Below are positions 20,347 to 36,334 of a DNA stretch of 64,000 bases, piece by piece. The position numbers and the translations under genes are program-made. The DNA comes from a virus. Positions within the stretch are counted from its first letter, which is position 1; every line of letters starts with the position of its first letter. The notes under the pieces were generated by a model, which worked only from the letters and a program-made list of their open reading frames with translations, had not been told where the DNA came from and ran no database searches. The stretch spans positions 1 through 64,000 of IMG/VR virus record IMGVR_UViG_3300042549_008312; one strand, written 5' to 3'.

Positions 20347-20669
20347 TAAAATGAAAATTTGTGGGTCTCTTCAAGATCACCTTTTGTTATATTATCCAGT
20401 AACCAGATATGTTCTTCTTTGATGAGAATTAATGTACCAAAACCTTGAGCAAAAATTTTGTAATTATCAAAGTTAGCCTCGTTATAATCACCATTTTTCA
20501 GTATATCAACAAAAACTTTACCGTTGATAATGTACTCTGGTTTGATTAAAAACCTTTCGTTAACAAAAAATATCTCAGGGTTCTCTTTTACGCTTAAATT
20601 GTTTTTAAGACACCAATTTAAAAAAGATCGGTTAAGTTCAATATTTATTTTCTTATTCTGATTACTCAT
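20346..20669 (-). CDS. Hypothetical protein (possible degenerate PD-(D/E)XK fold)
   Basis: KPEY.I...FVDI pattern. Confidence 0.45.
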   Translation of the reverse strand: MSNQNKKINIELNRSFLNWCLKNNLSVKENPEIFFVNERFLIKPEYIINGKVFVDILKNGDYNEANFDNYKIFAQGFGTLILIKEEHIWLLDNITKGDLEETHKFSF

Positions 20670-20729
20670 ACATATAAATACATCTGATTAATACATTAAT
20701 ATAAAAAAGGGGTTCTTTGTTATTTTATT

Positions 20730-21137
20730 TTAACCTTGTAAAAGGTCTTTCTTTTCGCTAAGTTTATTATGGTCAGCAATTATTTTGCTGACATTGTCCA
20801 ACGTTTTATCGAAACGTGAATCAACATATTTGTTTAATTCATCGACATGTCGGTGGGCTTCTTGATCAACCCTTTCAATCTCTCTTGAGAGATCGGTGGA
20901 TCTTTCATGGATTGTTCGATGAACCTCATCAAATTGTTTGTGAATTTCTCTTCGGAGTTCATCCAAATCACGCACAAGGTCATTTCTACCTTCTTGGTTA
21001 TATCTTTCGATATGGTTTATTGTATTTTCTTGGTTTGTTTGTTTTTTCGTTAATCTAACAACCATCACAACCCCGATCACAAGTAAAATTGCAACCAAAG
21101 CAGTAACGATCCCTAAACTGAAATAAATTGTTTCCAT
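20730..21137 (-). CDS. N-terminal TM + coiled-coil protein
   Basis: Hydrophobic N-terminus, heptad pattern, YVDSRFDK. Confidence 0.65.
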   Translation of the reverse strand: METIYFSLGIVTALVAILLVIGVVMVVRLTKKQTNQENTINHIERYNQEGRNDLVRDLDELRREIHKQFDEVHRTIHERSTDLSREIERVDQEAHRHVDELNKYVDSRFDKTLDNVSKIIADHNKLSEKKDLLQG

Positions 21138-21162
21138 GTTTAAAAATTTTTTTTAATGTATT

Positions 21163-21174
21163 ATGTCAAAGAAC
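21163..21174 (-). promoter_or_regulatory. boxA-like antitermination motif GTTCTTTGACAT
   Basis: Identical 12-mer also at 33404-33415; both lie next to tRNA genes. Confidence 0.6.
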
Positions 21175-21185
21175 CCCTTTTTTTG

Positions 21186-21274
21186 CGGAAGGTACTGGAC
21201 TCGAACCAGTGGATCCCCTTTCGAGGATCAACAGTTTAGCAAACTGCCGCATTCGGCCTCTCTGCCAACCTTCC
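21186..21274 (-). tRNA. tRNA-Ser(GCU)
   Basis: Cloverleaf with loop TTGCTAA and long variable arm. Confidence 0.93.
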
Positions 21275-21278
21275 AGTG

Positions 21279-21353
21279 TGGACCCTGTAGGGCTCGAACC
21301 TACGACCTACTGATTATGAGTCAGTTGCTACTAACCAACTGAGCTAAAGGTCC
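21279..21353 (-). tRNA. tRNA-Ile2(CAU) (lysidine type)
   Basis: GGACCTT acceptor and CTCATAA loop; resembles Ile2 rather than Met bodies. Confidence 0.8.
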
Positions 21354-21444
21354 AAATTCGGTGTAAAGTAGTCACGGCCACTTCTAGTCCATTACACCTG
21401 TTTTTATAACCGTGGCACAATGTGGCTCGACCCTGGTTATAATT

Positions 21445-21535
21445 TGGCGGAAGGAGTAGGATTCGAACCCACGGAACGGTTTCCCGTTCTTCAGATTTCA
21501 AGTCTGACGCAATCGACCAACTCTGCCATCCTTCC
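21445..21535 (-). tRNA. tRNA-Ser(UGA)
   Basis: Loop CTTGAAA, long variable arm, encoded CCA. Confidence 0.93.
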
Positions 21536-21569
21536 GTATTATATTATAAATATAAGCAAAAACTTTTAT

Positions 21570-22034
21570 TTAAACAAGTTTTTCTTTATCTTTTTCAATT
21601 GTTTTTTTAGAGACCAGACCTCTACCGTATTTGGTTATACGTTCTTTGTATCTTTCTTTAACGTGTGGGCTAATTGGTATTGGTGTACCATCTTCATCAA
21701 TTCTAACAAATTTGATGTTGGTGTGGGTAACGATTTCCTGGTCACCTGTACGCACATTGTGTTTTCTAACTTCGATGTATAAGGACACTGATGTGTTACC
21801 AAACTCAATAACTTTACCGTAGATTTTAAGTAACGCATTAACCTTAACGGCTTTCTTAAAGATTAACTCATCGATCTTAATTGTAACAACCATTGGTGTG
21901 TCACAAATCTGTGCAGCGTATGCGGCCGAAGCGTCATCAATTAAACTCACTAATGTACCACCGAACATATTGTCGTGTACACCGATATCACCCTTCTTAC
22001 AAATGTAAGTCGTTATTAATTCCATCTGTTCCAT
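21570..22034 (-). CDS. Acyl-CoA thioesterase (HotDog, YciA-like)
   Basis: D.G.H.NMFGG.L...ID, VVT..ID...F, G.TS, FV.ID..G.P. Confidence 0.88.
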   Translation of the reverse strand: MEQMELITTYICKKGDIGVHDNMFGGTLVSLIDDASAAYAAQICDTPMVVTIKIDELIFKKAVKVNALLKIYGKVIEFGNTSVSLYIEVRKHNVRTGDQEIVTHTNIKFVRIDEDGTPIPISPHVKERYKERITKYGRGLVSKKTIEKDKEKLV

Positions 22035-22281
22035 TAAACAATTTTAAGTACTTATTCCTAATTTCTAAAGATTTTCTTTTAAGACTGAAAGAATCGCTAT
22101 CAACCGCCTTAGCGATAATTTCCTCTTCTTCTTTAGTTACATGTTCTAACATAAAATCAAATTCATTGTCAGTTAAATTGTAAAATGATAAAAACATATC
22201 ATCCATTAAATCAAACATACCATGTTGTCCTGGTTGGTTTGTTTTTAAACATTCTTGCACCTCTGGCCTTAATACTTTCAT
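21997..22281 (-). CDS. Hypothetical protein
   Basis: ORF, start revised to MKVLRPE. Confidence 0.55.
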   Translation of the reverse strand: MKVLRPEVQECLKTNQPGQHGMFDLMDDMFLSFYNLTDNEFDFMLEHVTKEEEEIIAKAVDSDSFSLKRKSLEIRNKYLKLFNGTDGINNDLHL

Positions 22282-22324
22282 AATTAAAAAATTAGGGCGA
22301 TACCAAAATAATACCGCCAATTTG

Positions 22325-22708
22325 TGGAGATGAGGGGATTCGAACCCCTGTCTTGTCTAGCCATTAATTAACCCTCGTTCACATGCTTATTCAATTTTTC
22401 TAAACTGACAAACTTCACAATTCCCTTATTTTGACGGTTCGGTTTACTGAGAACTAATCTTCCGCTCGCTTATAAGATAGCGACACATCTTTTTGCAGTT
22501 TTGGGTGACTGTTGTTAGCCAAGCTTTCGCTTAGACTAATTCTAGATCTGCAAACTCAACAGACTGACCATTAAACGTGATGTTTCCGTCAGCATCGATA
22601 TAGCTTTCGCCATTTAAAACTGTATATAGGTTATTAAAGTGTTTCCAATACTAACACTGCATGCATCAAATTAAAGAACGTATCTATCAATCAATTCCAG
22701 TCATCCCC
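22325..22708 (-). ncRNA. ssrA: tmRNA (SsrA); tag ORF 22611-22531 encodes (A)GESYIDADGNITFNGQSVEFADLELV*
   Basis: 5' GGGGATG pairs with 3' CATCTCC-A (G3-U70), T-arm CAGGGGTTCGAATCCCCT, resume context TTTTAAAT-GGC; smpB in the same window. Confidence 0.92.
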
Positions 22709-22715
22709 ATATTTA

Positions 22716-22802
22716 TGGTACCGAGGGCGGGACTCGAACCCGCACGAACGTAATGTCCAAGGGATTTTAAGTCCCTCGTGTCTACCATTCCACCACCTCG
22801 GC
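22716..22802 (-). tRNA. tRNA-Leu(UAA)
   Basis: Loop CTTAAAA, long variable arm, CCA. Confidence 0.93.
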
Positions 22803-22893
22803 ATTGAAATATGATACAAAAGTAGTAAATAAATATGGACTATACAAGTGTTTTAATAAAAATTTTCAATTATTTTGTGATATTTATCTATAT

Positions 22894-23673
22894 ATGGGGT
22901 TAATTGAGGAAATAAAAAGAATGAGACAGATTATGTCCGTTATTAATGAAGAAAAAGGTCATGTGTCAGTATCTTGTCCAAAGTGTGATCACTCATGGAA
23001 AATTGAGGATGATGACCCTGATCCATATCTATGTCATACCTGTGGTTATGATAAACTTGAAGGTAAGTATGAACCTGAAAAACTGGCTAAATGGAAAAAA
23101 GAGTCTGGTCTAGAGGAGAATGATGATGAAGAAGTTGAAGATGATGATAACGATTTTTTTGGTATAAGAGAAGATCTAGCTGACCTTAAGAAAGAATTGG
23201 TTGCTGCTGGTGTAAACGATAATACAAGATTACATCTAACACATGATAGTGAATTAAAAAGAGTTAACACACCACAAAAAGCAACAGGGCCAAAACCAAA
23301 TGGTCTTTGGTATTGTGTTGGTTTTGGTTGGTTAGATTTCACAACCAGCGATTTCAAAACTTTTTATACAATCGGTAACCGTGTTCATGCTTTTGACATT
23401 AGTCTTGATGGTTTGGATGTGCTTCTTATAAGAAATTATGACCAATTGGTCAGATTTGAAAATAGATACTTGGTTAAGGATGAAACAAATTACTCAAGAA
23501 AAAATAACTTTAGCATTAACTGGGCTAAAGTTGCTGAAGATTATGATGGTATAGAGATAGCGCCATACATATATGAAGCTAGATATGAGCATGCCTGGTA
23601 TTACGGTTGGGACGTTGCTTCTGGATGTATCTGGAACACAAGTGGTTTAAAATCAAAAAAACTCCTACAATAA
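22894..23673 (+). CDS. Hypothetical protein: Zn-ribbon + conserved KP.GLW / YDGI / W.YGWDV.S.CIWN domain
   Basis: CPKC..W...D...CH.CG; start revised to MGLIEE. Confidence 0.6.
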   Translation: MGLIEEIKRMRQIMSVINEEKGHVSVSCPKCDHSWKIEDDDPDPYLCHTCGYDKLEGKYEPEKLAKWKKESGLEENDDEEVEDDDNDFFGIREDLADLKKELVAAGVNDNTRLHLTHDSELKRVNTPQKATGPKPNGLWYCVGFGWLDFTTSDFKTFYTIGNRVHAFDISLDGLDVLLIRNYDQLVRFENRYLVKDETNYSRKNNFSINWAKVAEDYDGIEIAPYIYEARYEHAWYYGWDVASGCIWNTSGLKSKKLLQ

Positions 23674-23725
23674 AGGTATTTATTAAAAACACAAACTATT
23701 TATAATATAGCAAAATCATATAATC

Positions 23726-24475
23726 ATGAAAATTAAATTAACCTTAAAGCAAATAAAGAATTTAATCAATGAAGGTAAATTACCTTATAGATTCTTGGAA
23801 GATAATAACCCAGAAGAGACTGAAACTATTGATGGTGAAATGTCTGGTGATGGTGAGAAGATGTCAAACGAACCTGAAATGTCAGCTGATGAACAAATCA
23901 GAAGTATTAAAGGTGGTAGCATTATTGACTTCTTACAGCAAATGCCAAGAAGAGGTTCATACGGTTATGTTTATTATACAGCTGAAATCCCTGTTAATAA
24001 AAACTATATCGATGATGACGGTGTTAAGAAACCAAACCCTATAGTTGGTAAACTATACAAAAACACCGTATTTAAATTCCAATTTGATAAATCTTATAAA
24101 AGAGCTGTTGAAATTAAAAACGAAAAAACTGGTGATGATTATGAGGTTGGATCTAGACAAGCGGTCTATAAAGATGTTGAGGGTTACAATATGTTATTAG
24201 AAGGCCCAAAAGGTTTATATTTCCCTATTGTATTAGACGACCCTAAAGGTGATCAAAGCGCAAATTACATGTTAATGAATGACAACGGTGGTTTTGATGT
24301 TGTATCGAAAGAACAAATAAAAAAATATTTAAAACCCGTTTCAGGTACATCAACATATATTAATTACAGATCTTTAATTGTCCAAAAAATATTTAAAATT
24401 AAAGCTGGGGGTAGGGCGTTTAGCAACTCAGAGTTCCCTTACGAATATTTAGGACCAGAAAACTTACAGAAATAA
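23726..24475 (+). CDS. Hypothetical protein
   Basis: ORF behind TATTTATA. Confidence 0.6.
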   Translation: MKIKLTLKQIKNLINEGKLPYRFLEDNNPEETETIDGEMSGDGEKMSNEPEMSADEQIRSIKGGSIIDFLQQMPRRGSYGYVYYTAEIPVNKNYIDDDGVKKPNPIVGKLYKNTVFKFQFDKSYKRAVEIKNEKTGDDYEVGSRQAVYKDVEGYNMLLEGPKGLYFPIVLDDPKGDQSANYMLMNDNGGFDVVSKEQIKKYLKPVSGTSTYINYRSLIVQKIFKIKAGGRAFSNSEFPYEYLGPENLQK

Positions 24476-24506
24476 AAAAAGCCCCAATTTAAGGGGCTTT
24501 TTCTTT
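24474..24506. terminator. Bidirectional intrinsic terminator between convergent genes
   Basis: aaaaaagcccc aatttaa ggggctttt. Confidence 0.8.
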
Positions 24507-25537
24507 TACTTATTAAATCGTTTAAACGATGCTTCCGTTATCAGATTATATTTGGCACGTCCAATAAACTCACTAAGATTCTTTGCATCCGTATAACTCA
24601 TAGCTGATGTTAGATAATGTTTAAAGTTATCAACCCAACCATCTATAGTATATTCAACAGCATGCACCCTTACAACACCTTCAGATGTTTTAACGTCCGT
24701 CTTACCCCAACTTGCTTGCACCTCTTTGGTTGACATCCCTCTGAATTTCTTGTATAGTTTACCACCAGCTTTAAAAAATTCTTTTGCTTTTAAATTGTAC
24801 TGATTAATACGTTCACCATCCTCATCTACGGTATCACCAGCACTTTCCAGGGCTTTATTAAAGATTGAACCAAGCATTACATAGTCAGCACCAAGGGCCA
24901 ATGCTTTAATTACATCTGAATACTTTTTAAACCCACCGTCAGCAACAATTTGCGCTGGTTTTTCTAAAGTGCATGAAACTTTATATGTTTCAACAATCAA
25001 TGAGGCCATTGGATACCCGACACCTGTGTGTACAGTTGTTAAACAACCACCACCGTTTCCAATACCAATTCTAACATAGTCAGCACCAGCATCAGATAAT
25101 AAAGCGTATGTTTCTGGATTGGCAACATTACCAACCATCAATACCAATGAATCACCATATTTCTCCTTCGCTGTTCTGGTTAATTCGTGTACAGCTGGCA
25201 TATGGCCGTTTGCAACATCTAAAAGAATGTGATGTTTTGATTCTTTTGGTTGATCGTTCTTAATGAACACATCTTCGAATTGAGTAAGCCCATATGAAAT
25301 CCACTCACTAAAACTTGTCTTGGGATGTAAATCTGTATTGGCTGTTCTTGGTAAGATCACATTAATACATTGCTCTTTAAAATAATGAGCGTTGTGTATG
25401 TTCACAACTGTATCCATGGGCGCTGTGAATAAAGGTAATCCACCTTTATCATCAAAGGGGTATATTTCCGATCTGGAGTTAATTCTGGTTATTGCCGATG
25501 GCATTAACAACACATCATCAAAGTCAAATAAAGTCAT
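24506..25537 (-). CDS. IMP dehydrogenase/GMP reductase family (no CBS domains)
   Basis: FDDVLL.P, APMDTV, DVANGH, GIG.GGGCLT, ADGG, FRGMST, SEG. Confidence 0.9.
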   Translation of the reverse strand: MTLFDFDDVLLMPSAITRINSRSEIYPFDDKGGLPLFTAPMDTVVNIHNAHYFKEQCINVILPRTANTDLHPKTSFSEWISYGLTQFEDVFIKNDQPKESKHHILLDVANGHMPAVHELTRTAKEKYGDSLVLMVGNVANPETYALLSDAGADYVRIGIGNGGGCLTTVHTGVGYPMASLIVETYKVSCTLEKPAQIVADGGFKKYSDVIKALALGADYVMLGSIFNKALESAGDTVDEDGERINQYNLKAKEFFKAGGKLYKKFRGMSTKEVQASWGKTDVKTSEGVVRVHAVEYTIDGWVDNFKHYLTSAMSYTDAKNLSEFIGRAKYNLITEASFKRFNK

Positions 25538-25594
25538 ATTGTTTTATTTTATGTTATGGGACAAAAGTAGTAACTAATTTGGTATAAACCAAAT

Positions 25595-26239
25595 TTAAAC
25601 CCACTTTGGTTTATCTAAAATATATTTTTCTCCATAAACCTTTAGATCACTATTTATTATATCATCAAAATTACTTACATAGTTTTTTGAGGTCGACATT
25701 TTACCAAAAAGCTTAAAACCTAGATAACCGTAACAAGGTTTAGGTGAGTACTGATGTAAATACTCATCACCAGCATAATGAATTAAATCTTGTGGTATTG
25801 GTGTGTATAAATCTGTTTTACCAAAAATAAGTGTACCCCACCCATAATCCCTATTATAATGAACTCTTAAACCGAAAACATATGGTTTTATTTTAATCTC
25901 CAATTGGGTTTTATCCATACCGATTAAATTAACTTCATCATCCTCGTTATAAAATCTAACAACATCATCAATCATTTTCCCATTAAATAATATATCATCA
26001 TTACATAAAGCGTAATATTTTGACTTGGTTAATAATACACCTAAATTCCAAGATTTATTACACATTAGATTTGATCCAGTGTTTACGATTTTAAGTTTTT
26101 CATATTCAGGTAGTCTCACCCGATTTTCAGAATTTTCAATTAAAATAATCTCACTAACTAATGGATGAAAATTTAACATTTCCAATAAAAATGGCATTGT
26201 TTCAGCCATATATACGGTTGGTATGATAAAGGTTACCAT
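25595..26239 (-). CDS. Glycosyltransferase family 2-like
   Basis: FIIPT, EIILIEN, WNLG, CNDD. Confidence 0.8.
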   Translation of the reverse strand: MVTFIIPTVYMAETMPFLLEMLNFHPLVSEIILIENSENRVRLPEYEKLKIVNTGSNLMCNKSWNLGVLLTKSKYYALCNDDILFNGKMIDDVVRFYNEDDEVNLIGMDKTQLEIKIKPYVFGLRVHYNRDYGWGTLIFGKTDLYTPIPQDLIHYAGDEYLHQYSPKPCYGYLGFKLFGKMSTSKNYVSNFDDIINSDLKVYGEKYILDKPKWV

Positions 26240-26245
26240 ATTTAA

Positions 26246-26791
26246 TTATCGTTTAATACCCCAAAAATACAAATCACATGTTTCTGGTTCGTATTTAAAT
26301 TCATATTCGGTGAAAATATTATTCACATCAAGAACTTTTTTAATATCGCTTTCTGTTAAATTTTTATAGTAGTTAGCCCATTCTTCACTAAATTGGGAAA
26401 GAAATGGTGCGTTTTCTGGTGTTGTCCTCAAAGTACCATGCTCATGTCTACTTGTTGAGGCACATGTAAATACCATTAAACCACCAGATCTTAATAACCT
26501 AACCATGTTATTTAAAGACCTCGCATAATACATATCATGTTCAAAACATTCCCCAGATGTTACAATATCAAATTGGAAACCAGAGTCATATAAATGAGCT
26601 GGGCAAATAACATCAACATTGGGTCCGCTAGCTAAGTCTAAACCAATATAATAATATGGTTGTTGAAATAGGTGTCTAACATTACCGTTGATATCTAATG
26701 AACCAATATCCAGTATTTTAACATCAGTGAAAAGGTTTGGGTATTTTTCTTTAACTGATCTAAAGAAGTTTTGTTGTTGTTCGTGTGCCAT
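26246..26791 (-). CDS. Class I SAM-dependent methyltransferase
   Basis: ILDIGS.D.NG, YIGLD...G.NVD, ECFEH, L..GG. Confidence 0.85.
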   Translation of the reverse strand: MAHEQQQNFFRSVKEKYPNLFTDVKILDIGSLDINGNVRHLFQQPYYYIGLDLASGPNVDVICPAHLYDSGFQFDIVTSGECFEHDMYYARSLNNMVRLLRSGGLMVFTCASTSRHEHGTLRTTPENAPFLSQFSEEWANYYKNLTESDIKKVLDVNNIFTEYEFKYEPETCDLYFWGIKR

Positions 26792-26833
26792 ATTTTTTTT
26801 ATAAAAATAGAGAAACTTTTTAATAAAACCAAA

Positions 26834-27823
26834 TTATTCCTCAACAATTCTTGCTGAATCAATGTAAAACCTATCATTGGGGTTGGTTAGATTTAATTCT
26901 TTAAATAAAGAACCATTGACAAATATTTTTATGTGAGCAGCGTCCGCATAATTAACCTTTAAGTTAATCCAAACACACCTATAATAAGGTACAATAAAAG
27001 TTTTTGTTACCCCATTTTTGTTTTTATCAATAACAACCACGTCAATAATGTTCCCGTCTAACTTACTCAAATTATCATGAGCAATATGTAACACGCCATC
27101 AACTGTGTGTAAACAGTATTTATCAGATAAACCAATAAATGTTTGATTAGTGTTAATCTTCATTACATCTTTTATCTTATCAGTACTCTCAACTTTAATT
27201 TTTAGTTTTGACCATAGGGTATCATATATCATACCCTCTGTAAGAGGAAACGTTTGTTTATGATATCTTGATTTATATTCGGATACCAAATACTCCTCAT
27301 CATATTTTAAGTCATCAAATGATAGTTTTTTTAAGTTAAAGCTAATGGGTAAAAGTAAATGTTTAGTTTCTTTATGGCTTGCTGGTTCAAAACCAACCAA
27401 ATCGCATTCACCATCACATATTAACGCTTTAGCTTCCTCAAAGTGTGTAAAATCGTTTATTTCAGAATCATATTCCAAATAATGAACAATGTCATACCCA
27501 AGAGCTTTTAGGTAAGCAAAACCACCAGATTGTAATGTCCAACAAGCTAAAAGTGTAGTGGCTGATTTTAAATTTATAAATGTAAATTTTATATTACCGA
27601 TTTTGGTATTAGACCAATATTGTATTGTTGGATCAAGTATTAATTTATTTTCGTTATCAAATATTGTGTATTTACACATTTCTTCAATATCTTTTGGTAT
27701 TGGTGAATGTGATATAACCATTATGTCCTTACCTTGTTTACTAATACTATCAACCAAAGACCTTAAAACTTGTTGTTTTTTAAAAGTAGGGGTATAGGCG
27801 GTTATTAAATAAATTTCTTTCAT
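26834..27823 (-). CDS. Putative glycosyltransferase-like protein
   Basis: SH.P, HYLEYD (DxD-like) within the sugar cluster. Confidence 0.5.
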   Translation of the reverse strand: MKEIYLITAYTPTFKKQQVLRSLVDSISKQGKDIMVISHSPIPKDIEEMCKYTIFDNENKLILDPTIQYWSNTKIGNIKFTFINLKSATTLLACWTLQSGGFAYLKALGYDIVHYLEYDSEINDFTHFEEAKALICDGECDLVGFEPASHKETKHLLLPISFNLKKLSFDDLKYDEEYLVSEYKSRYHKQTFPLTEGMIYDTLWSKLKIKVESTDKIKDVMKINTNQTFIGLSDKYCLHTVDGVLHIAHDNLSKLDGNIIDVVVIDKNKNGVTKTFIVPYYRCVWINLKVNYADAAHIKIFVNGSLFKELNLTNPNDRFYIDSARIVEE

Positions 27824-27824
27824 A

Positions 27825-28766
27825 TTATTTAACCCATTTCATTATAGTTGAACCCCAGGCCCAACCAGAACCAATCGCTGTGAATACGATGATATCACCT
27901 TTATTAATCTGATTATTCATAACAGCGTCATCTAATGCTATGGGTACCGATGCACCAGCAATGTTAGCGTATTTATGCATAACAGTTTTAACCTTTTCCA
28001 TTGGTAAACCAACTTCATCAGCAACTATTTTTAATATATTGATACTTGGTTGGTGTGGTATAAGCATATCAACTTCCTCAGCTTTAATATTTGATTTTTT
28101 AAGTACACTCTTTATCGATATTGGTAAAACCTTAATAGCTTGTTCCCAAACCTCTTTACCTCTCATTATGAAAGGTGCGTTAAGTGGCATGTTGAAACCA
28201 GTCATACCAGTGTCCTTACCATTTGCACTACTTTCAAATGACATCCAACCATCTTCATCATAACCCAAAACAATTGCACCAGCACCATCACCAAAAAATA
28301 CGGAGTGTTGGTTAGTCCAATCTGTATGTTTTGAGTAAGCTTCTGTTGCAATAATTAAAACGTTTTTATGTACCTTATGACTTATAAGTGGTATCATAAG
28401 ATTAATTGCGTAAACAAAACCAGAACAAACAGCGTTTATATCAAAAGCTGGTATATCTCTATCAATATTAAATTTATTGTGTATGATACATGCTGTTGAT
28501 GGTGATATTTTTTCTGGACTAGATGTTGCAACAATAATTAAATCAATACCATCAATTCCCATATTAGCCGACTCAAGCGCTTTTAAGGCAGCTTTATAAC
28601 CCATCTCGGATGGTGTTTCTTCGGCAACTCTTCTTTCATCAATACCAAGTTTATCTTTAACCCAAACATGTGTTGTATTAACAGTTTTTTCAAGGTCATG
28701 ATTAGTTACAATCTTATTAGGTAAATAAGAGCCAACACCTTTTATACTAACATTATTATAAATCAT
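27825..28766 (-). CDS. fabH: 3-oxoacyl-ACP synthase III (FabH family)
   Basis: FDINAVCSGFVYA, FGDGAGA, PHQ, AN..GAS. Confidence 0.9.
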   Translation of the reverse strand: MIYNNVSIKGVGSYLPNKIVTNHDLEKTVNTTHVWVKDKLGIDERRVAEETPSEMGYKAALKALESANMGIDGIDLIIVATSSPEKISPSTACIIHNKFNIDRDIPAFDINAVCSGFVYAINLMIPLISHKVHKNVLIIATEAYSKHTDWTNQHSVFFGDGAGAIVLGYDEDGWMSFESSANGKDTGMTGFNMPLNAPFIMRGKEVWEQAIKVLPISIKSVLKKSNIKAEEVDMLIPHQPSINILKIVADEVGLPMEKVKTVMHKYANIAGASVPIALDDAVMNNQINKGDIIVFTAIGSGWAWGSTIMKWVK

Positions 28767-29298
28767 ATTCTAACATTTTATTCTCCCTGTTTTTAATTAA
28801 TTTAATCGGGTTACCACCATATATACCATAAGCAGGTAGATCTTTACTGACTAAACTTAATGCACCAACTGCCGTACCCTCTTCAATTGTTACACCTGGT
28901 AAAACAACCACGTTACAACCAAGAACAACATACTTCTTTAAATGCACGGTTTTGCTTCTAACGTTAGTAAATTCTTTAGGTACTGTTGGCCCAACTAAAT
29001 AATTACCAGAAAAATCATCTGATGATGAGTAAATTGAAACTTTTCCTGATATTTGCGAATGATCCTCACAAATTATAGCACCAGAACCTATTAAATGAGC
29101 ATAACACGCAATATGTATATAATTACCCAATTTAATACCACCTTCACCAGCACTTAAGATACAAAAATCATCTATTCTAACATTTGAACCGATCTCGATA
29201 TTTTTAGCGTTATATATTGACGCTTTGTCCGATATTAAAACGTTTTCACCTAACGATTTAAAACCCATTTCTAATAATTCATTTCTACTGTAAAACAT
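28756..29298 (-). CDS. Hexapeptide-repeat sugar N-acyltransferase (VioB-like)
   Basis: GFK.LGENV.IS....IY....I.IG.NVRIDDFC, left-handed beta-helix repeats. Confidence 0.85.
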   Translation of the reverse strand: MFYSRNELLEMGFKSLGENVLISDKASIYNAKNIEIGSNVRIDDFCILSAGEGGIKLGNYIHIACYAHLIGSGAIICEDHSQISGKVSIYSSSDDFSGNYLVGPTVPKEFTNVRSKTVHLKKYVVLGCNVVVLPGVTIEEGTAVGALSLVSKDLPAYGIYGGNPIKLIKNRENKMLEYDL

Positions 29299-29299
29299 A

Positions 29300-29953
29300 T
29301 TATCTATTAGCTTTTGTGTAAATCTCAAATTTAGATAAATCTGGGTATGGTAATTCTAAATCAGCATTATGTTTTGGTTTACCGTTTATATCATAAAATT
29401 GACCCATTAATAATAAACCCCTAGTTGCTAACTCTGGCATCATATAATAGTTCCAACCCAACATATCAAGATTGTCATCATGGTATGAACATTCACGTCT
29501 ACCAGAATATCTCGCACGTTTAAACCAAAGATAAGCTTCATGACTATCTGTTAAAATAGCACCACCTTTTGACAACTTAAAATGTTTGTAAGGACCTGTA
29601 AATGAAACACACATATGTGTTTCAGGGATATACATATCCGCTGTAAATCTTAACGCTGAATCCCATACATTACTACCTTTAAGTTCGTAAGCACCCTTAA
29701 TAGTTTTACCTTCAACATGATCAAAACCAACTTTTAAACCAGTATGAATAATTTCACATGGTACAGATGGGTATGTTCTACTAGGTATGGTGATTGTATC
29801 ACCAGTTATAGATTTTTTTACGTTTTTTTCGTAATATAATGCTAAAAATAATGCATTACTTTGGTTATCAACTGTAACCACATAAGGAGCACCAGTGTAA
29901 TCACTTAATGCTTTTTCAAAGTCTTCTGTTATTTTGTAAATTCCGTTTGCCAT
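29300..29953 (-). CDS. Short DegT/DnrJ/EryC1/StrS-family sugar aminotransferase
   Basis: FE..L..Y.G...VV.V.....AL.LAL, DSA, SF...K....GGAILT, GWNY.M. Confidence 0.8.
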   Translation of the reverse strand: MANGIYKITEDFEKALSDYTGAPYVVTVDNQSNALFLALYYEKNVKKSITGDTITIPSRTYPSVPCEIIHTGLKVGFDHVEGKTIKGAYELKGSNVWDSALRFTADMYIPETHMCVSFTGPYKHFKLSKGGAILTDSHEAYLWFKRARYSGRRECSYHDDNLDMLGWNYYMMPELATRGLLLMGQFYDINGKPKHNADLELPYPDLSKFEIYTKANR

Positions 29954-30548
29954 ATATTTTTTTATTAATTATTTTTTTTTTACAGGGTACTCCCACATAA
30001 GTTCCTGATTCTAATATGTTATTAACAACAGCGCCATTCATTCCAATAACACAATCAGATGTAATTTGTATCTTTTCTTTAATATTAGAACAGCTACCCA
30101 TATAAACTCTATCACCAATTTCAACATTTCCACCAACAACAGCGTTTGGCATTGCGCTGAAATAATTGCCGATAATACAATCATGCCCTATTTGATTACC
30201 TCTATTTAAAATAGCGTGTTCACCTATATTAATATTGGTTGTGAGTATACTATATGCACCAATAAAACTACCCTCACCAATTTTAACATCACCGATTAAT
30301 AGAGCGGTTGGGTGAATGAAGGTAAAAAATTGAGTGTCTTTTGGTAATCTTTGGGTGATGTCATATCTATCTCTTGAGTCAGCGACCGCAATCATTGCGA
30401 TATGTTTTTTTGGGTCAAATAATGATAATGGTAATACGTCTTCACTATGTTTAACATATTGGTCATCAACAAATCTATCTAATTTAACACCCATCTGAGC
30501 CATCACTTCTCTAGAGTGGCCACCACCACCTATTAAAACTTTTTCCAT
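29916..30548 (-). CDS. NeuD/PglD-like sugar acyltransferase
   Basis: IGGGGH.REV, FIHPTA, IGHDC, YVGVP. Confidence 0.88.
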   Translation of the reverse strand: MEKVLIGGGGHSREVMAQMGVKLDRFVDDQYVKHSEDVLPLSLFDPKKHIAMIAVADSRDRYDITQRLPKDTQFFTFIHPTALLIGDVKIGEGSFIGAYSILTTNINIGEHAILNRGNQIGHDCIIGNYFSAMPNAVVGGNVEIGDRVYMGSCSNIKEKIQITSDCVIGMNGAVVNNILESGTYVGVPCKKKIINKKIYGKRNLQNNRRL

Positions 30549-30627
30549 GATCTATTCGTATTATTATATAATAATATGAAAATGTATAGAAAAAACAAGT
30601 ATTTAAAAAAACATATTGGAAAATAAA

Positions 30628-30713
30628 TGGAGCCTTCTGTTGGATTCGAACCAACGTGTCCTTTCGGATCCTGATTACAAGTCAGGTGCAATCAACCACT
30701 ATGCGAAGAAGGC
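30628..30713 (-). tRNA. tRNA-Thr(UGU) with atypical long variable arm
   Basis: Acceptor GCCTTCT/AGAAGGC-U-CCA, loop CTTGTAA, variable hairpin TCC-GAAA-GGA. Confidence 0.8.
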
Positions 30714-30715
30714 AT

Positions 30716-30792
30716 TGGAGCGGGTAGCGAGACTCAAACTCGCAACCCCCAGCTTGGAAGGCTAGTGCTCTAGTCAATTGAGCTATACCCGC
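30716..30792 (-). tRNA. tRNA-Gly(UCC)
   Basis: Loop CTTCCAA, U73, CCA. Confidence 0.92.
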
Positions 30793-30878
30793 AATTTGGT
30801 CTGGATCAGAGTCCTTCTGCCAGACGAGACCTCGTAGTTGACTTTCGTCAGAGCTTATCGAGACACTATTTTTTTTTG

Positions 30879-30969
30879 TGGCTGACACAGGACTCGAACC
30901 TGCACTGGGCAACCTTACAACCTTTCGGCCTTGGGGGTTTGGGCACCATCCCGCATTACACAGTCAGCC
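30879..30969 (-). ncRNA. tRNA-like RNA with no recognisable anticodon arm
   Basis: Acceptor GGCTGAC/GTCAGCC-A and T-arm GCAGG-TTCGAGT-CCTGT intact; middle irregular. Confidence 0.65.
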
Positions 30970-31237
30970 ATTTGTCCCCATCCTGAGATCATGGATGAGT
31001 AGTCATATCGGTTTGTTTACTTTGAAACAACCTGCTGGGCATCCCCGTTAAAAAAAGTCAAACTACTGGGAGCCTCTGTTACCTAGCTTTATTCCCACGA
31101 GACTGGCGTTTTATAGAGCCACACCCAGTTTCTACCCATGAGATAGTCTTCTATGTGGATATTAGGATGTCCAGTCCGATACCCTATCAAGTTTAAATGA
31201 GACATTGACAAGTCTACTGAGTATCTCTTACCCATTG

Positions 31238-31311
31238 TAGTGATAACGAGACTCGAACTCGTAACCTAATGCGTATAAGGCATGTGCTCTCACCAATTGA
31301 GCTATACCACT
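31238..31311 (-). tRNA. tRNA-Ile(UAU)
   Basis: Loop CTTATAC, A73. Confidence 0.85.
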
Positions 31312-31396
31312 AATTATTGCCATGGTCTGCCTCGTAGTACAGACTGTACCCCTTTAAGTGACTCACTAACCCTAGGTGTGGGTAGCATAGCAATTG

Positions 31397-31468
31397 TAGT
31401 CCCTACGGGAATCGAACCCGTCTTTTCAGGATGAAAACCTGATGACCTAACCGATAGTCGAAAGGACC
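31397..31468 (-). tRNA. tRNA-Glu(UUC)
   Basis: Loop TTTTCAT in TCAGG/CCTGA stem. Confidence 0.9.
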
Positions 31469-31609
31469 AAATAGGACAATGATGGAGTACCCGTCTCGCT
31501 CCAATCTTAATTGCTTCCTGAGTTTTAATGAGGCCTCAGCAAAGGGTGATGAATTCCGATTCCACTCTGGATTGTCGACATCCGTTGAACGGGGAAAACC
31601 ATTGTCTTG

Positions 31610-31681
31610 CTGTGATGGGGAATTCCGAGATCCCGACCTGAGAGTTAACAGCTCCCTGCTCTACCTCTGAGCTACATCACA
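31610..31681 (-). tRNA. tRNA-Asn(GUU) with atypical T-loop
   Basis: Loop CTGTTAA, G73; T-arm GGGAT-CTCGGAA-TTCCC. Confidence 0.82.
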
Positions 31682-31891
31682 AAATAATTGATGATTCGAC
31701 CACATTTCTTACCAGAGCGGGACAAAGGGGTCTATTGGTATTGTACCCTCATGCACTCAATTGGGATTGCGGCCCCGTGAGTCTCCCGATGCGCCATTGT
31801 CTTTCATTAACTTTTCTCCGTCCTATCTGTTGTGGGATTCTGGCAGTGTTCCCTCAGGATACTCGTTTAATTACTCTTTCATCATCAATTG

Positions 31892-31962
31892 AGCGATAGA
31901 CAGGATTCGAACCTGCGACCCTAACCTAGAGGATTATGCTCTACCAACTGAGCTACTATCGC
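31892..31962 (-). tRNA. tRNA-Gly-like body with 5-nt anticodon loop (CUCUA)
   Basis: GCGATAG/CTATCGC-U acceptor, perfect D and T arms, anticodon arm TAATC-CTCTA-GGTTA. Confidence 0.7.
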
Positions 31963-32178
31963 AATTTGGCTACTCCTTTGGGGAAGTTTCGCCATTAACG
32001 TGAATGGGGTGATCAAACCCACTAACATCACGGGTATAGGTTTTAACAACAAAACCATTACCAAAAAACGCCAGTTTTTAACGCCCAAAACTGAATAAAC
32101 GGCTCGACTCTTCTGTGGACTCAATTTTAAGTGCGCTCCACATCACCTCTCAAGCTGAACAATACTGCGAACACTCCC

Positions 32179-32253
32179 TGGTTGCGGGGGCAGGATTCGA
32201 ACCTGCGACCCCGAGCTTATGAGGCTCGTGAGCTACCTCTGCTCTACCCCGCA
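32179..32253 (-). tRNA. Initiator-like tRNA-Met(CAU)
   Basis: TGCGGGG acceptor, GAGC D-stem (A11-U24), CTCATAA loop, CCA. Confidence 0.85.
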
Positions 32254-32326
32254 ATATCTTATGGTTTTGCCTCACCAAAAAGCTTCCATTGTATGAAGTC
32301 CAATAGATAAAGTCCTCGGTTTGTTG

Positions 32327-32400
32327 TATCCCCGACAGGATTCGAACCTGTGACCTATTCATTAGAAGTGAATTGCTCTATCCAGCTGAGCTACGAAGAC
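32327..32400 (-). tRNA. tRNA-Arg(UCU)
   Basis: Loop CTTCTAA, A20 in D-loop. Confidence 0.92.
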
Positions 32401-32407
32401 ATAATTT

Positions 32408-32467
32408 CGGAATGCGTTTTTTTCAAAGTAGAAGTTTGATTTTGTAAAATTTGCTGAATGCATTCCC
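32408..32467 (-). ncRNA. Stem+CAGCA-motif small RNA with a UCU anticodon-like hairpin
   Basis: GGAATGC/GCATTCC closing stem, TTCAGCAAA, TCAAA-CTTCTAC-TTTGA. Confidence 0.6.
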
Positions 32468-32487
32468 ATTAAGTTAAGATAAAATAC

Positions 32488-32611
32488 AGGATGAATTTAT
32501 ACGTGCTCTAACCAGCTGAGCTACCTGGGATGCCGAAGCATTGTCCCAGGGTTGGATTCGAACCAACGACCACGAGGTTAGAAGCCTGAAGTAAATTGCT
32601 GTAACCATCCT
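32488..32611 (-). ncRNA. Circularly permuted tRNA-Arg(UCU)-like / YrlA-like RNA
   Basis: Order is anticodon loop, T-arm, looped acceptor stem, D-arm, all inside a terminal stem AGGATG/CATCCT. Confidence 0.8.
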
Positions 32612-32623
32612 CATTATTTTATC

Positions 32624-33265
32624 TTATATCTTTCTACCTTTTGACCAACCATTATTTAGGTAATCTTCAAGGTTTTCTTTTTTAATTTTTTTATTAACAC
32701 CATCTTTAGTTATCCAACAAGTTCCGTATTGTGAGTTTTTTTCACCAACACCAATACCTTTACTAGAATTACTCATTTTTTGTTTAGTTTCTTCTGAATG
32801 CGTTTTACCTTCAAAGGTATTGTACTTAATTTTACCCTCTTTGTGACTTTTTTTCATGGTATTACGCAATCTTTCAACAACAACATCCCTATATTCAAGA
32901 TCGTCAAACATTTTTTGTTTATGTGCTTTACCCCCGCAAATTGATCGGTGTCTTTGTTGTTCGTCACTAATAAAACCACCAGTACCACCACCCATTAAAT
33001 TCATACAATTTTTATCAACAAGCATTTCAGGTGTGATGGCAACTTTTTCGGCCTCAATTAATAAATCCCTATTCTCAAAGAATTCAAGTATTTGTTTTTC
33101 ATGGTTTTCAATACCATATTTTCTAATACTCTTTCTTAATCTTCTACCGCTACCTATATAACCATCTTCTAAGTTATCTGCGCTATGCATACCTATATAA
33201 TACCTGTTTGTTACCAAACAAGTTGTTTTATACAAGTAATGTATTGTTTTTTGTTTCCTTGGCAT
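32624..33265 (-). CDS. Free-standing GIY-YIG homing endonuclease with NUMOD3 (Seg-like)
   Basis: YLYKTT....R.YIG.H, Y.GSG, GKTHSEETKQKMS; inserted in the tRNA cluster. Confidence 0.9.
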   Translation of the reverse strand: MPRKQKTIHYLYKTTCLVTNRYYIGMHSADNLEDGYIGSGRRLRKSIRKYGIENHEKQILEFFENRDLLIEAEKVAITPEMLVDKNCMNLMGGGTGGFISDEQQRHRSICGGKAHKQKMFDDLEYRDVVVERLRNTMKKSHKEGKIKYNTFEGKTHSEETKQKMSNSSKGIGVGEKNSQYGTCWITKDGVNKKIKKENLEDYLNNGWSKGRKI

Positions 33266-33314
33266 AATCTACATTTTTAATATAAATAGTACCAAAGAAC
33301 AAAAAAGTTCTAGG

Positions 33315-33386
33315 CGGTCCATGCGGGAATCGAACCCGCCTCACCACCGTGACAGGGTGGCATCCTAGCCGATGAACGAATAGACC
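33315..33386 (-). tRNA. tRNA-Asp(GUC)
   Basis: Loop CTGTCAC, G73. Confidence 0.92.
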
Positions 33387-33403
33387 ATTTTTGATTTTCC
33401 AAT

Positions 33404-33415
33404 ATGTCAAAGAAC
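33404..33415 (-). promoter_or_regulatory. boxA-like antitermination motif GTTCTTTGACAT
   Basis: Between the first and second tRNA of the operon; second copy at 21163-21174. Confidence 0.65.
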
Positions 33416-33457
33416 TTAATAGGAAACCACAGTTTTACGACAACGTCAACCTATCTT

Positions 33458-33533
33458 TGGTGGTGCGGGCAGGAATCGAACCTGCGACACAAGGATTTTC
33501 AGTCCTTTGCTCTACCAACTGAGCTACCGCACC
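33458..33533 (-). tRNA. tRNA-Phe(GAA)
   Basis: Loop CTGAAAA, CCA. Confidence 0.94.
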
Positions 33534-33539
33534 AAATTC

Positions 33540-33594
33540 GGGATGGATTTTGTTTGTATTTATCCGTTACATGTAATGTGCTGTAACCATCCCC
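33540..33594 (-). ncRNA. Stem+CAGCA-motif small RNA
   Basis: GGGATGG/CCATCCC stem followed by TTACAGCA; shares GGATGGTTACAGCA with 32488-32611. Confidence 0.6.
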
Positions 33595-33610
33595 ATTTTC
33601 TAATCTGTTA

Positions 33611-33642
33611 CAAAACTAAGAAGTAATTTCTATACTTCCAAA
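33611..33642 (-). promoter_or_regulatory. Bacteroidota sigma-A type promoter for the tRNA operon
   Basis: TTTG-N20-TAGTTTTG. Confidence 0.7.
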
Positions 33643-33680
33643 TCTTTTTTAAATTTTTTTCATTTTTTTTCTTTTAAACG

Positions 33681-33708
33681 AAAAAACCCAGAGATCTCTC
33701 CCTGGGTT
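33681..33708 (-). terminator. Attenuator terminator hairpin
   Basis: AACCCAGGGA-GAGA-TCTCTGGGTT-TTTT. Confidence 0.85.
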
Positions 33709-33763
33709 CCTTATTGTATCTAGTATATTTTTTACTTGAGATTTTTACAATAGGAACCCAGGG
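33700..33763 (-). promoter_or_regulatory. Antiterminator hairpin (18 bp, one bulge) overlapping the terminator 5' arm
   Basis: CCCTGGGTTCCTATTGTA (33763-33746) pairs with TACAATAAGGAACCCAGGG (33718-33700). Confidence 0.8.
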
Positions 33764-33810
33764 CGATTCTCATCACCAAATGTTCTTCCTATATTTGTAA
33801 AGTTTCTCAT
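33745..33810 (-). CDS. Putative attenuator leader peptide MRNFTNIGRTFGDENRPGFLL
   Basis: 21-codon ORF whose 3' end is the antiterminator 5' strand; codons match the downstream tRNAs. Confidence 0.75.
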   Translation of the reverse strand: MRNFTNIGRTFGDENRPGFLL

Positions 33811-33884
33811 CGAAATTCTTGTTATTTTCCTATATATACTTCAATTTTACTAAAAGTTTCAAAAAAAGAAATATTTTTTTAAAA

Positions 33885-34352
33885 TTATCTGCAATAATTA
33901 TCTGCTGCGGAGCTTGCGGCCCACGCATCTGGTTTACCAACGGCATCATATCCCATTGATTTAGCGTAACCAATACCCGCTTCATACAATTGATTTGACT
34001 TCTCACTTTGCTTTGAGTTGTAATCAACGTGTACAGTTATTTTTGTGTCTATGTCTTTCAATATTTCGGCTGCGTTAACTGATCTAACAACCTCAGACCA
34101 TAGCTTTGGATGCATGTTCGCTATTGGATCACCTTTCTTTGGTCTTGGTTCGATTTCTTTACAGTGAATGACGTGAGCACCCTTACCAAACTCATATAAA
34201 CAAATTGTTGTAACATAATTAACATTGCTTCCAACTTCTTGTGAGTCGCAACCAATATAAATTTCAGACTCTGGATGTTTTACCAACCATTCTGATACAT
34301 ATTCGGACACATTCTCAATAATCAACCCATCTTTTGTCCTAAAATCTTTCAT
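33885..34352 (-). CDS. RNase H-like YkuK (DUF458) family protein
   Basis: IYIGCDSQ, EV..S, VHVDYN, KPDAWAASSAAD. Confidence 0.82.
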   Translation of the reverse strand: MKDFRTKDGLIIENVSEYVSEWLVKHPESEIYIGCDSQEVGSNVNYVTTICLYEFGKGAHVIHCKEIEPRPKKGDPIANMHPKLWSEVVRSVNAAEILKDIDTKITVHVDYNSKQSEKSNQLYEAGIGYAKSMGYDAVGKPDAWAASSAADNYCR

Positions 34353-34355
34353 TTC

Positions 34356-35945
34356 TTACATTTTAAATGTGGTAAACCCTGTTTCACCACTGTTATCTTT
34401 TATAAAATTAATATGTTGTGCTCTCCCATCTTTATGGATGATCACATGCGATTGTAACCATGAGCTTGGTCCGATATTGTAACCAACTCTTAGTTTTGTT
34501 GAGGTACCAACCGCTAAAGCACCGTCTTTTCTCCCTGGTGAGTGGTAATGACCAACAATGACCTTTGTATTAAGCGTTCTAAACTGATTTAGAGACCCTC
34601 TGCTGCCATTTGATCCAACATCACCATGTTGACCCAACTCCCAATCTTTAACCATGTAAGAAGCGTTCCTATTCAATGTAATGAACTTGGGGAATCTTTG
34701 GTTGATCACCTCAGGTATTACACCTTTAATTTCACCCTTAGCATGCTGTCTCAAAAGCATTGCGGAGTATTCCATGTATACCAATGAGTTTTTGCTTGTC
34801 GGTTGTCTTTTCCAATCCTCATTTGTTAACCAGCGATCCAAAAAGTCATCATGGTTACTTCTAACAATAACAACGTTTTTATAATCTTTGAATGACTCCA
34901 ACCCATCGAGCATGTTATTTATTTCCCTCTCAACAGAATTGGTGCCGTTCATTTCTTTTGCAAATTGAATGAATGGGTTTTTCATTTCATGGTGGCTGAT
35001 TGAGTTGCCATCGAATACGTCATGTAATACAACATGCTCTGGTTTCATCTTGCCTAACAACTCATGTGTCTTATCAATCACATCTTGATCATGATGACCA
35101 TAGTGAATGTCACCAAACACAATTGCTGATAATGAATCAACCTTACTTACCTCTCCACCCTCAACTCTATGACAAAGATCGGTAAAGTTACCAGTCTTAT
35201 CATGTGCGGTTACTTGTCTAACATAGAACGTATCCTCATCCTTAATTTCAACGATGGCAAAACCATATGTGTGATGGAACTCGCCTTTCTTACCAGATTT
35301 TGAATCCGTGTAATTCATCTTTGTTACCGCACCAGTTGTAAGCATCATTTTAGGTTTATTACCCTCAAGAACTGAGATCATCTCAAGTTGTACCTTTGGT
35401 GCTCCAAAGATGCATGAGTTAATACCACTTACACCTTGCAAACCACTCATTGGGTTTGTTGCTGTTGGTTGAATTTTTAAATCTGACATAATTGACACAT
35501 ATTTGTGAACATCATGTCTATTCGCATCCAAATAAGGTACAACAGCGTTATCCCATTCTTCATGATCTTTATCAGTGAACACCGATGTTGGGTTTTTATA
35601 ACGTCCAGCAATTACGTGGATATCAGCACCCAAAAATTCAGCATACGCTTTAATATTTTCAAAGAGTGGTTTATGAACTGGTGTGTCATTCTGAGCCCAA
35701 GTAATAAGGAACATTTTTTGTTCTTTATTAGTCGGTCTTTGTTTGGCCGTCAGATATTGTTCCGATTCAACCTCAACCTTCTCCTTAAAGTTTAATTTTT
35801 CAGAACACCATTTTCTAACTGTTCTTTCGGATTTACCGAATAAAGCCACAAGCGAGTTCATTCTATCATCCCAAGATAACTCCTTATTAAGGTAGATGTT
35901 TCTTGCTTTGTCAATTTCTTGTTCTGTTAAGTCTTTAAATTTCAT
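34356..35945 (-). CDS. T5 A1-like protein (HTH + metallophosphoesterase/nuclease)
   Basis: SERTVRKW HTH; ITWAQN.T.VH, Y.NPT, GDIH, HD.FDG, SNHDDFL, HGD.G.NG.RG, GH.HSP, GPSSW. Confidence 0.75.
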   Translation of the reverse strand: MKFKDLTEQEIDKARNIYLNKELSWDDRMNSLVALFGKSERTVRKWCSEKLNFKEKVEVESEQYLTAKQRPTNKEQKMFLITWAQNDTPVHKPLFENIKAYAEFLGADIHVIAGRYKNPTSVFTDKDHEEWDNAVVPYLDANRHDVHKYVSIMSDLKIQPTATNPMSGLQGVSGINSCIFGAPKVQLEMISVLEGNKPKMMLTTGAVTKMNYTDSKSGKKGEFHHTYGFAIVEIKDEDTFYVRQVTAHDKTGNFTDLCHRVEGGEVSKVDSLSAIVFGDIHYGHHDQDVIDKTHELLGKMKPEHVVLHDVFDGNSISHHEMKNPFIQFAKEMNGTNSVEREINNMLDGLESFKDYKNVVIVRSNHDDFLDRWLTNEDWKRQPTSKNSLVYMEYSAMLLRQHAKGEIKGVIPEVINQRFPKFITLNRNASYMVKDWELGQHGDVGSNGSRGSLNQFRTLNTKVIVGHYHSPGRKDGALAVGTSTKLRVGYNIGPSSWLQSHVIIHKDGRAQHINFIKDNSGETGFTTFKM

Positions 35946-36334
35946 AATTTACTTTCAAGTTTTTGTAATTGTTCGTGTGTTTTTTTAAAATCGTCTACTA
36001 ATAGCTCATGTTCGTCAATGGCTTTATTAATAATGGTCATTTTATTATACCAAATATTCGTCATGGTTGTTTTGATCGTATTTTCATTTGTTTCAGCTAA
36101 TAAAGTCATAACAGTTGGTTCGATTATCTCAATGAGTTCATTCTGTAGTTCGATTATCTCAACACGTTTCAAAGCAAATTCATCTTGTAAGGATACCAAC
36201 TTTTCATTTAAAGAAATGGCCGCATTTCTAATTTTTTTTGTGTAATTATCCGTTTCAACAATGTCGGTGAGATCAACACCTTGTTTAATTAATTTATTAA
36301 CGCTCCATTTAGCTATACTGTATAATAATCCCAT
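35942..36334 (-). CDS. Hypothetical coiled-coil protein
   Basis: ORF. Confidence 0.55.
   Translation of the reverse strand: MGLLYSIAKWSVNKLIKQGVDLTDIVETDNYTKKIRNAAISLNEKLVSLQDEFALKRVEIIELQNELIEIIEPTVMTLLAETNENTIKTTMTNIWYNKMTIINKAIDEHELLVDDFKKTHEQLQKLESKL

Follow-up and report, generated by a model that had tools for sequence, protein, structure and literature searches.

The spacer in front of the first tRNA cluster of the phage genome studied here probably carries a transcription attenuator of the leader-peptide (ribosome-mediated) kind, like those of trp, his and ilv, which would be tuned by its codons and would head that cluster. That some translation-coupled terminator switch acts at this site is more likely still. 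The genome, IMGVR_UViG_3300042549_008312, is a single virus record of 165,848 bases with 32% GC, and "the window" denotes the whole stretch of DNA that was analyzed, i.e., the first 64 kb of this record. The first-pass annotation had counted the phage among the "huge" phages, a description that does not hold, as the genome comprises only 165.8 kb (genomes of relatives range from 206 to 321 kb). The host is presumed, from promoter motifs only, to belong to the Bacteroidota.

Leader ORF and first tRNA cluster of the window

The leader ORF that had been claimed on the minus strand is present and consists of 21 codons followed by TAA (33745-33810, minus strand; the ATG is at 33810 and the TAA ends at 33745). 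No Shine-Dalgarno sequence was found ahead of this ORF; such a sequence is usually missing in Bacteroidota. The gene immediately upstream of the leader (33885-34352, minus strand) encodes an RNaseH-like protein of the YkuK family (PF04308). YkuK-like genes with this RNaseH fold also adjoin tRNA arrays in numerous viral contigs that are not otherwise related (L130-L167; 27-41% identity), which suggests a role of these genes that is linked to tRNA genes or to tRNA processing.

Downstream of the leader, the first tRNA cluster (30628-33533, minus strand; delimited with ARAGORN, Rfam and reading of the sequence) comprises Phe, Asp, Arg(UCU), Met, a degenerate tRNA, Asn, Glu, Ile(UAU), Gly(UCC) and Thr, with structured spacers and a GIY-YIG/NUMOD3 homing-endonuclease-like gene (32624-33265, minus strand) interspersed among them. 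All nine tRNA species that had been reported below the leader could be recovered. Eight of these were called by ARAGORN, i.e., Phe(GAA), Asp(GUC), Arg(UCU), Met(CAU), Glu(UUC), Ile(UAU), Gly(UCC) and Thr(UGU), while the ninth, Asn(GUU) at 31610-31681 (minus strand), was missed by ARAGORN and detected with the Rfam tRNA model only, its anticodon loop being read off the sequence. The degenerate Gly-type tRNA at 31892-31962 (minus strand) is likewise real; it has a shortened anticodon loop and is mislabeled by ARAGORN as Arg(UCU), and relatives carry a Gly(GCC) tRNA in the same part of the array.

Several further RNA features and motifs were observed around the tRNA genes. A phage-encoded tmRNA is located at 22322-22708 (minus strand), next to a tRNA-Leu(UAA). 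A weak match to YrlA (Y RNA-like), with 38 bits and below threshold, and a closed-stem RNA (see below) were noted at 32502-32574 and 33540-33594 (both minus strand). Spacers between tRNA genes repeatedly contain a short conserved motif that includes TTGACA (approx. 33405-33425 of the window, minus strand; 6870-6885 in L128; 2035-2050 in L170), which may represent an internal promoter or a processing signal.

Scored under ordinary wobble rules, 14 of the first 15 leader codons are read by the downstream tRNAs, exactly as had been described, with GGT as the sole exception and with all nine species represented. Measured against genome codon usage, as the first-pass annotation had proposed, the match stands out: 15 of the 20 non-start codons match, as compared to a baseline of 0.38 of codons in long ORFs of the whole genome (P = 9 × 10-4; binomial test), and the leader ORF ranks first for codon match among the 884 ATG ORFs of 15-35 codons found in six frames of the whole genome. 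Among 20-codon windows within genes, 0.13% reach 15 matches and 0.22% cover all eight non-Met species, and the proportion that does both is 2 × 10-5. A codon-to-tRNA match by chance is unlikely.

RNA segments and conservation of the element

Relatives of the element were sought among viral and metagenomic contigs with the upstream YkuK-like protein and with the leader peptide, and a search with an alignment of three leader peptides added one locus. A DNA similarity search of the phage collection returned tRNA matches only and no relatives, and an IUPAC pattern scan of viral contigs yielded, among the matches listed, only chance matches and loci already known from the other searches. Overall, the element was found in at least six lineages that are diverged in both peptide and DNA but share ancestry and hence are not independent counts, each time heading the first tRNA cluster. 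These lineages are the clade of the window (L001, L123, L172-L181 and L185), L003/L124, L008/L127 with L170, L129, L128, and L004-L006. The YkuK proteins of the relatives are 48-97% identical to that of the window (48-75% for the diverged lineages), and the element is constantly located between the ykuK-like gene and the first tRNA cluster, despite genes inserted on either side. In six lineages, the leader frame runs uninterrupted over 21-27 codons, and indels leave its conserved blocks in frame. No leader was detectable in L189, the YkuK protein of which is 66% identical to that of the window.

Within the clade of the window, five synonymous and two non-synonymous changes occur in the leader ORF (per-site ratio approx. 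0.12), and the spacer behind the stop codon is more variable than the ORF, including indels. In the L003 group, codons 6-19 show synonymous changes only, and codons 3 and 5 alternate among ACA, AGA and ATA, codons that encode three amino acids but all have a matching tRNA in the first cluster. Across lineages, Asn, Phe-Gly and Gly-Phe-Leu residues are fixed in position.

The sequence from the ORF to the U tract appears to be laid out in four segments, as in the trp attenuator, with three mutually exclusive helices. Segment 1 (33786-33801, minus strand; nucleotides 10-25 of the ORF) is predicted, from MFE folds, shuffles and covariation, to pair with segment 2 in ribosome-free RNA. Segment 2 (33746-33763, minus strand) covers the last six codons (the Pro-Gly-Phe-Leu-Leu region), extends into the beginning of the stop codon, and has either segment 1 or segment 3 as its partner. 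Segment 3 (33700-33717, minus strand) forms the antiterminator with segment 2, and eight of its nucleotides double as the 5' arm of the terminator. The intrinsic terminator itself (33681-33707, minus strand) is composed of a 9-bp stem (33699-33707 paired with 33686-33694), a GAGA loop (33695-33698) and a U6 tract (33681-33686), so that the GNRA-loop terminator with U tract named by the first-pass annotation was found as described. The alternative hairpin, which had been given as 18 bp, exists as a long duplex that overlaps the 5' arm of the terminator; it comprises about 17 pairs and contains one bulge. The attenuator logic put forward for this site fared similarly, in that its core is supported by the comparative tests, while the number of segments is four rather than three. 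Because of the pairing between segment 1 and the last codons, transcription should terminate, and not read through, when the leader is untranslated.

Folding of the region gave a hairpin of 14 pairs with the GAGA loop, the stem of which runs into the U6 tract (z = -4.5 as compared to shuffles); a simple scan for promoters and terminators did not call this hairpin or any other terminator in the leader region. A hairpin followed by a tract of U6 to U11 is present in all lineages, and an RNAalifold consensus showed the terminator to be conserved with compensatory pairs; for example, a G.U pair of the window is replaced by A-U in L181, L185 and L005. In MFE folds from the ATG to the U tract, the early ORF segment pairs with the last codons, followed by the terminator, in every lineage. 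The overlap between the antiterminator and the 5' arm of the terminator amounts to 8 nt in the window and to 3-4 nt in the other lineages.

The duplex of segments 2 and 3 in the window has a predicted energy of -30.9 kcal/mol, which none of 500 shuffles equaled. Among 12 representatives, none of 500 shuffles was as good in seven, 2-8 were as good in four, and 27 were as good in L129. When the partners were swapped across lineages, only 3 of 720 permutations equaled the pairing of each segment 2 with its own segment 3. The duplex of segments 1 and 2 was also better than shuffles in most lineages, the exceptions being L129 and L003.

Covariation was followed in columns anchored on the conserved Gly-Phe codons. 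The wobble base of the Gly codon (G, C or U) is accompanied by its respective complement (C, G or A) in segment 3, and the wobble base of the Phe codon (C or U) is accompanied by G or A, respectively, at its partners in both segment 3 and segment 1, with a single exception, i.e., one G.U wobble in L008. Similarly, L185 differs from the window at four positions of the ORF, and of these, the three within helices are A-to-G changes by which pairing is retained as a wobble. In a covariance-model (CM) alignment of 18 copies, 79% of the cells pair and the covariation score is 0.218 as compared to 0.153 for shuffled data (0 of 500 shuffles reach either value), with the clade of the window one column off because of its bulge, which lowers both numbers. 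In the same alignment, the register of segments 2 and 3 given above was the best among seven slides. RNAalifold applied to a MAFFT alignment recovered only the terminator and no antiterminator. The antiterminator register shifts by one column between clades, and re-alignment with the CM is a partial repair; therefore, the codon-anchored comparison represents the main covariation evidence. Taken together, the short ORF, the antiterminator and the terminator, the conservation of which in relatives had been named as a check, are conserved with compensatory changes in six lineages.

In the folding of the switch, a 30-nt ribosome footprint was masked, and the U tract was masked as well, as it would still be in the RNA-DNA hybrid. 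With the U tract held in this way, the full terminator was predicted both for free RNA and with a ribosome at the stop codon, and the terminator stem was lost from the predicted fold of the window's sequence when the A site of the ribosome was at about codons 5-11. An early stall removed or truncated the terminator in 8 of 10 representatives, with a responsive range that depends on the lineage (about codons 5-15); folding of both states, which the first-pass annotation had suggested, thus bore out the predicted difference between them. When the U tract was free to pair, an equilibrium switch was seen in three lineages only and the terminator was retained in five. The switch would thus have to be kinetic, as in known attenuators.

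We propose that transcription would begin at a conserved block upstream of the leader (see below) or come in from the ykuK-like gene. If no ribosome is present, segments 1 and 2 would pair and segments 3 and 4 would form the terminator, so that transcription would stop at the U tract. If a ribosome reaches the stop codon, segment 2 would lie under it and the terminator would form here too. A ribosome stalled with its A site at about codons 5-11, on the other hand, would cover segment 1 and leave segment 2 free to pair with segment 3, which would prevent formation of the terminator and allow read-through into the tRNA cluster. This stall window would specify Thr, Asn, Ile, Gly, Arg, Thr and Phe, i.e., codons of tRNAs encoded just downstream. 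Its A-site codons (ACA, AAT, ATA, GGA, AGA, ACA and TTT) are all read by tRNAs of the array, four of them as exact Watson-Crick cognates, and the codon enrichment of the leader is concentrated in this stretch. Because the stall-window codons are read by the downstream tRNAs, a shortage in decoding would raise transcription of those very genes and would represent negative feedback on tRNA supply. The model assumes that the presumed Bacteroidota host couples translation to transcription. Amino-acid starvation, tRNA shortage and a general slowing of ribosomes would act like the host anticodon nuclease that had been proposed as a trigger. We infer translation of the ORF, stalling, switching in vivo and the weight of attenuation relative to the downstream promoter from the sequence evidence presented here.

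This downstream promoter, a Bacteroidota-type motif (TTTG, spacer, TAnnTTTG) at 33611-33642 (minus strand), lies between the terminator and tRNA-Phe, as had been pointed out previously, and the same caveat is valid in every lineage, as a host-type promoter motif follows the terminator in each of them (approximately thirty such motifs occur in this genome). Since a promoter stands between the terminator and the genes to be regulated, the attenuator could add read-through to transcription of the array and not gate it. In L128, tRNA-His is located directly behind the terminator, with no promoter in between and with a host-type promoter driving the leader; this is the only tRNA gene found directly behind the terminator. 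A conserved block with sigma-70-like -35 and -10 hexamers, approx. 20 nt upstream of the start codon (33831-33862, minus strand), is a candidate promoter of the leader itself. This block accompanies the leader in all lineages but L128, where the host-type promoter replaces it, and was not found as a motif in other parts of this genome. In L124, the two genes ahead of the leader are on the reverse strand, so that the leader would there need a promoter of its own.

Two other conserved features were noted in connection with the host-type promoters. One is a closed-stem RNA with CAGCA as a conserved motif, which recurs directly behind such promoters and, in relatives, ahead of tRNA-Phe and of the leaders of second clusters. 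The other is a conserved, GC-richer sequence of approx. 250-300 nt between the host-type promoter and tRNA-Phe in L124 (approx. 8720-9050) and L127 (approx. 6760-7085), which is absent from the window.

Leader codons and tRNA content across genomes

Enrichment of leader codons for the tRNAs of the own array was also found in seven of eight other lineages (P = 2 × 10-4 to 0.012). The leader of L004 was not enriched (11 of 25 codons; P = 0.78), at a short locus for which the baseline comes from only 530 codons. Swaps of leaders and arrays between lineages revealed weak covariation, as 6 of 720 permutations matched the observed pairing and the differences were small. Individual lineages point in both directions: L123 and L170 kept their Asn codons and have no Asn tRNA in their available DNA, while Glu is missing from both the leader and the first cluster in L128 and L129, and His is present in both the leader and the first cluster in L128 alone.

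A stronger comparison is possible within genomes, where codon usage is controlled. Four related genomes (G002, G003, G004 and G005), all larger than that of the window, carry 25-31 tRNA genes (ARAGORN) in three to five clusters. Their first cluster comprises the same core tRNA set as that of the window, and each of the further clusters has its own mini-ORF and terminator. The cluster with Arg(ACG), Leu and Gln is preceded by a mini-ORF rich in Leu, Gln and Arg and by a terminator in all four genomes. Similarly, the cluster with Lys, Ile, Val and His is preceded by a mini-ORF rich in Ile, Lys, Val and His in all three genomes that have it, and the cluster with Tyr, Pro, Ser, Trp and Glu is preceded by an ORF rich in Ser, Tyr, Pro, Glu and Trp in both genomes that have it; this last ORF contains several Ala codons where the cluster includes a tRNA-Ala. 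In matrices of leaders by clusters for the four genomes, all 13 leaders matched their own cluster best, by row as well as by column. Over codons 2-18, the match to the own cluster was 0.47-0.82, as compared to 0-0.35 for the other clusters. This within-genome match of leader to cluster is the strongest test of the codon listing. The covariation between leader and array that the first-pass annotation had anticipated is thus found as a match to the own cluster within genomes and is weak between lineages. The second tRNA cluster of the window (21185-22802) has no leader, and the leaders of the other clusters gave a mixed picture for the switch in silico, with several showing none. On balance, we favor the view that, in phages of Bacteroidota-like hosts, each tRNA block would stand behind its own multivalent attenuator, written in the codons which that block decodes, so that feedback would operate cluster by cluster, with slow decoding of a set of codons turning on just the tRNA genes that serve it.

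The element could also be read as a translation-coupled terminator without specificity for the listed tRNAs, since its switch would by itself react whenever ribosomes slow down. It would then sense ribosome activity in general, or a small molecule via nascent-peptide arrest, and serve chiefly to insulate the tRNA array from the ykuK operon. The conserved positions of Phe-Gly and Gly-Phe-Leu resemble those of arrest peptides, and the weak covariation with tRNA content between lineages agrees with such a sensor. We consider this reading unlikely, however, since both the preference of every leader for its own cluster in four genomes and the concentration of codon enrichment in the stall window indicate that codon identity matters, and since the conservation of Gly-Phe-Leu is explained by the RNA pairings.

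It is quite improbable that the ORF is an independent gene, equipped with promoter and terminator, whose small conserved peptide (21-27 residues) acts in its own right and resembles the tRNA set only incidentally. Such a gene would account for the purifying selection in the closest clade, for the Asn, Phe-Gly and Gly-Phe-Leu residues that keep their positions across lineages, and for a leader with its own conserved upstream block and strong terminator next to an array with its own promoter. It would leave unexplained, however, why the last codons show compensatory complementarity both to a segment that overlaps the terminator and to an early segment of the ORF, why, within one and the same genome, unrelated mini-ORFs precede other clusters and each mirror their own cluster, and why the N-terminal codons vary freely yet stay within the tRNA set.

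There is next to no probability that the leader is a chance ORF in an AT-rich spacer and the hairpin behind it an ordinary terminator serving the upstream gene, for although short ORFs are common at 32% GC and the region follows the ykuK-like stop codon, the frame, start context and pairings are conserved at YkuK identities of only 48-75%, no other small ORF among the 884 has as high a codon match, the element remains with the tRNA cluster when genes separate it from ykuK, and the related loci are too diverged to be assembly duplicates of one sequence.

Two observations on other leaders and tRNAs were made in the same material. In a different phage group, a 46-codon ORF (L130, 2424-2564, with matching stretches of L131 and L132) has a 3' part that is complementary to the 5' arm of the following terminator and precedes an array that includes Trp, Arg(ACG), Pro, Val, Gly and Gln; 26 of its 45 codons match this array (baseline 0.37; P = 0.003), and the ORF represents a possible independent analogue of the leader. 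Secondly, tRNAs with a CUA anticodon (amber-suppressor type; ARAGORN) occur in two jumbo relatives (G004 at 40589 and G005 at 16062; loci L203 and L197), where TAG may be read as sense during part of the cycle.

Relation to known regulatory systems

Why phages carry tRNA genes, and when these are expressed, has been debated for decades. Phage tRNA arrays are discussed as codon supplements or as counter-defence against host tRNA nucleases (PMC10264068, PMC11555353, PMC11464382); these papers appear to address the function of the tRNAs and not cis-regulation of their transcription. Our full-text literature searches found no tRNA genes, of phages or of other origin, described as controlled by a leader peptide or by attenuation. 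If an attenuator indeed heads the cluster, the phage would monitor its own tRNA supply via the decoding speed of the codons that are served downstream, and ribosome-mediated attenuation would extend from amino-acid operons to tRNA genes. The element would also be a compact programmable part, in which the codon list of the leader determines which shortage opens the terminator, and this list would provide a sequence-level clue to the codons that are limiting in infection.

In an Rfam scan of positions 20000-36000 with E values up to 1, no known leader or riboswitch family matched within 33681-33880; the KRAS 3' UTR family gave a match below threshold (33652-33686) that just touches the U tract. 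A T-box riboswitch was considered and rejected, as neither a stem I specifier loop nor a T-box match to the Rfam model was found. T-box RNAs bind uncharged tRNA directly, via a specifier codon and the T-box sequence and with no need of translation, and control synthetase or amino-acid genes. The element described here would resemble them in that transcription read-through is set by the state of specific tRNAs, and would differ from them in its dependence on an ORF, besides lacking a T-box match.

The closest parallels are the enterobacterial attenuators, which comprise trpL, hisL, pheL and leuL as well as the multivalent leaders of ilvGMEDA (Ile, Val and Leu) and thr (Thr and Ile). Like these, the element has a short leader ORF and four segments that provide a protector, an antiterminator and an intrinsic terminator; its regulatory codons are placed where a stalled ribosome would free the antiterminator, and several amino acids would be sensed together. 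Unlike the enterobacterial attenuators, it is phage-borne, has a second promoter after the terminator and shows no sequence or Rfam relationship to them. Its codons represent six to nine families, mostly with one or two codons each and not in runs, and the genes behind its terminator encode tRNAs instead of biosynthetic enzymes. Overall, the proposed mechanism would be of a known kind, while its target, i.e., tRNA genes, and the multi-codon roster are, as far as could be checked, new.
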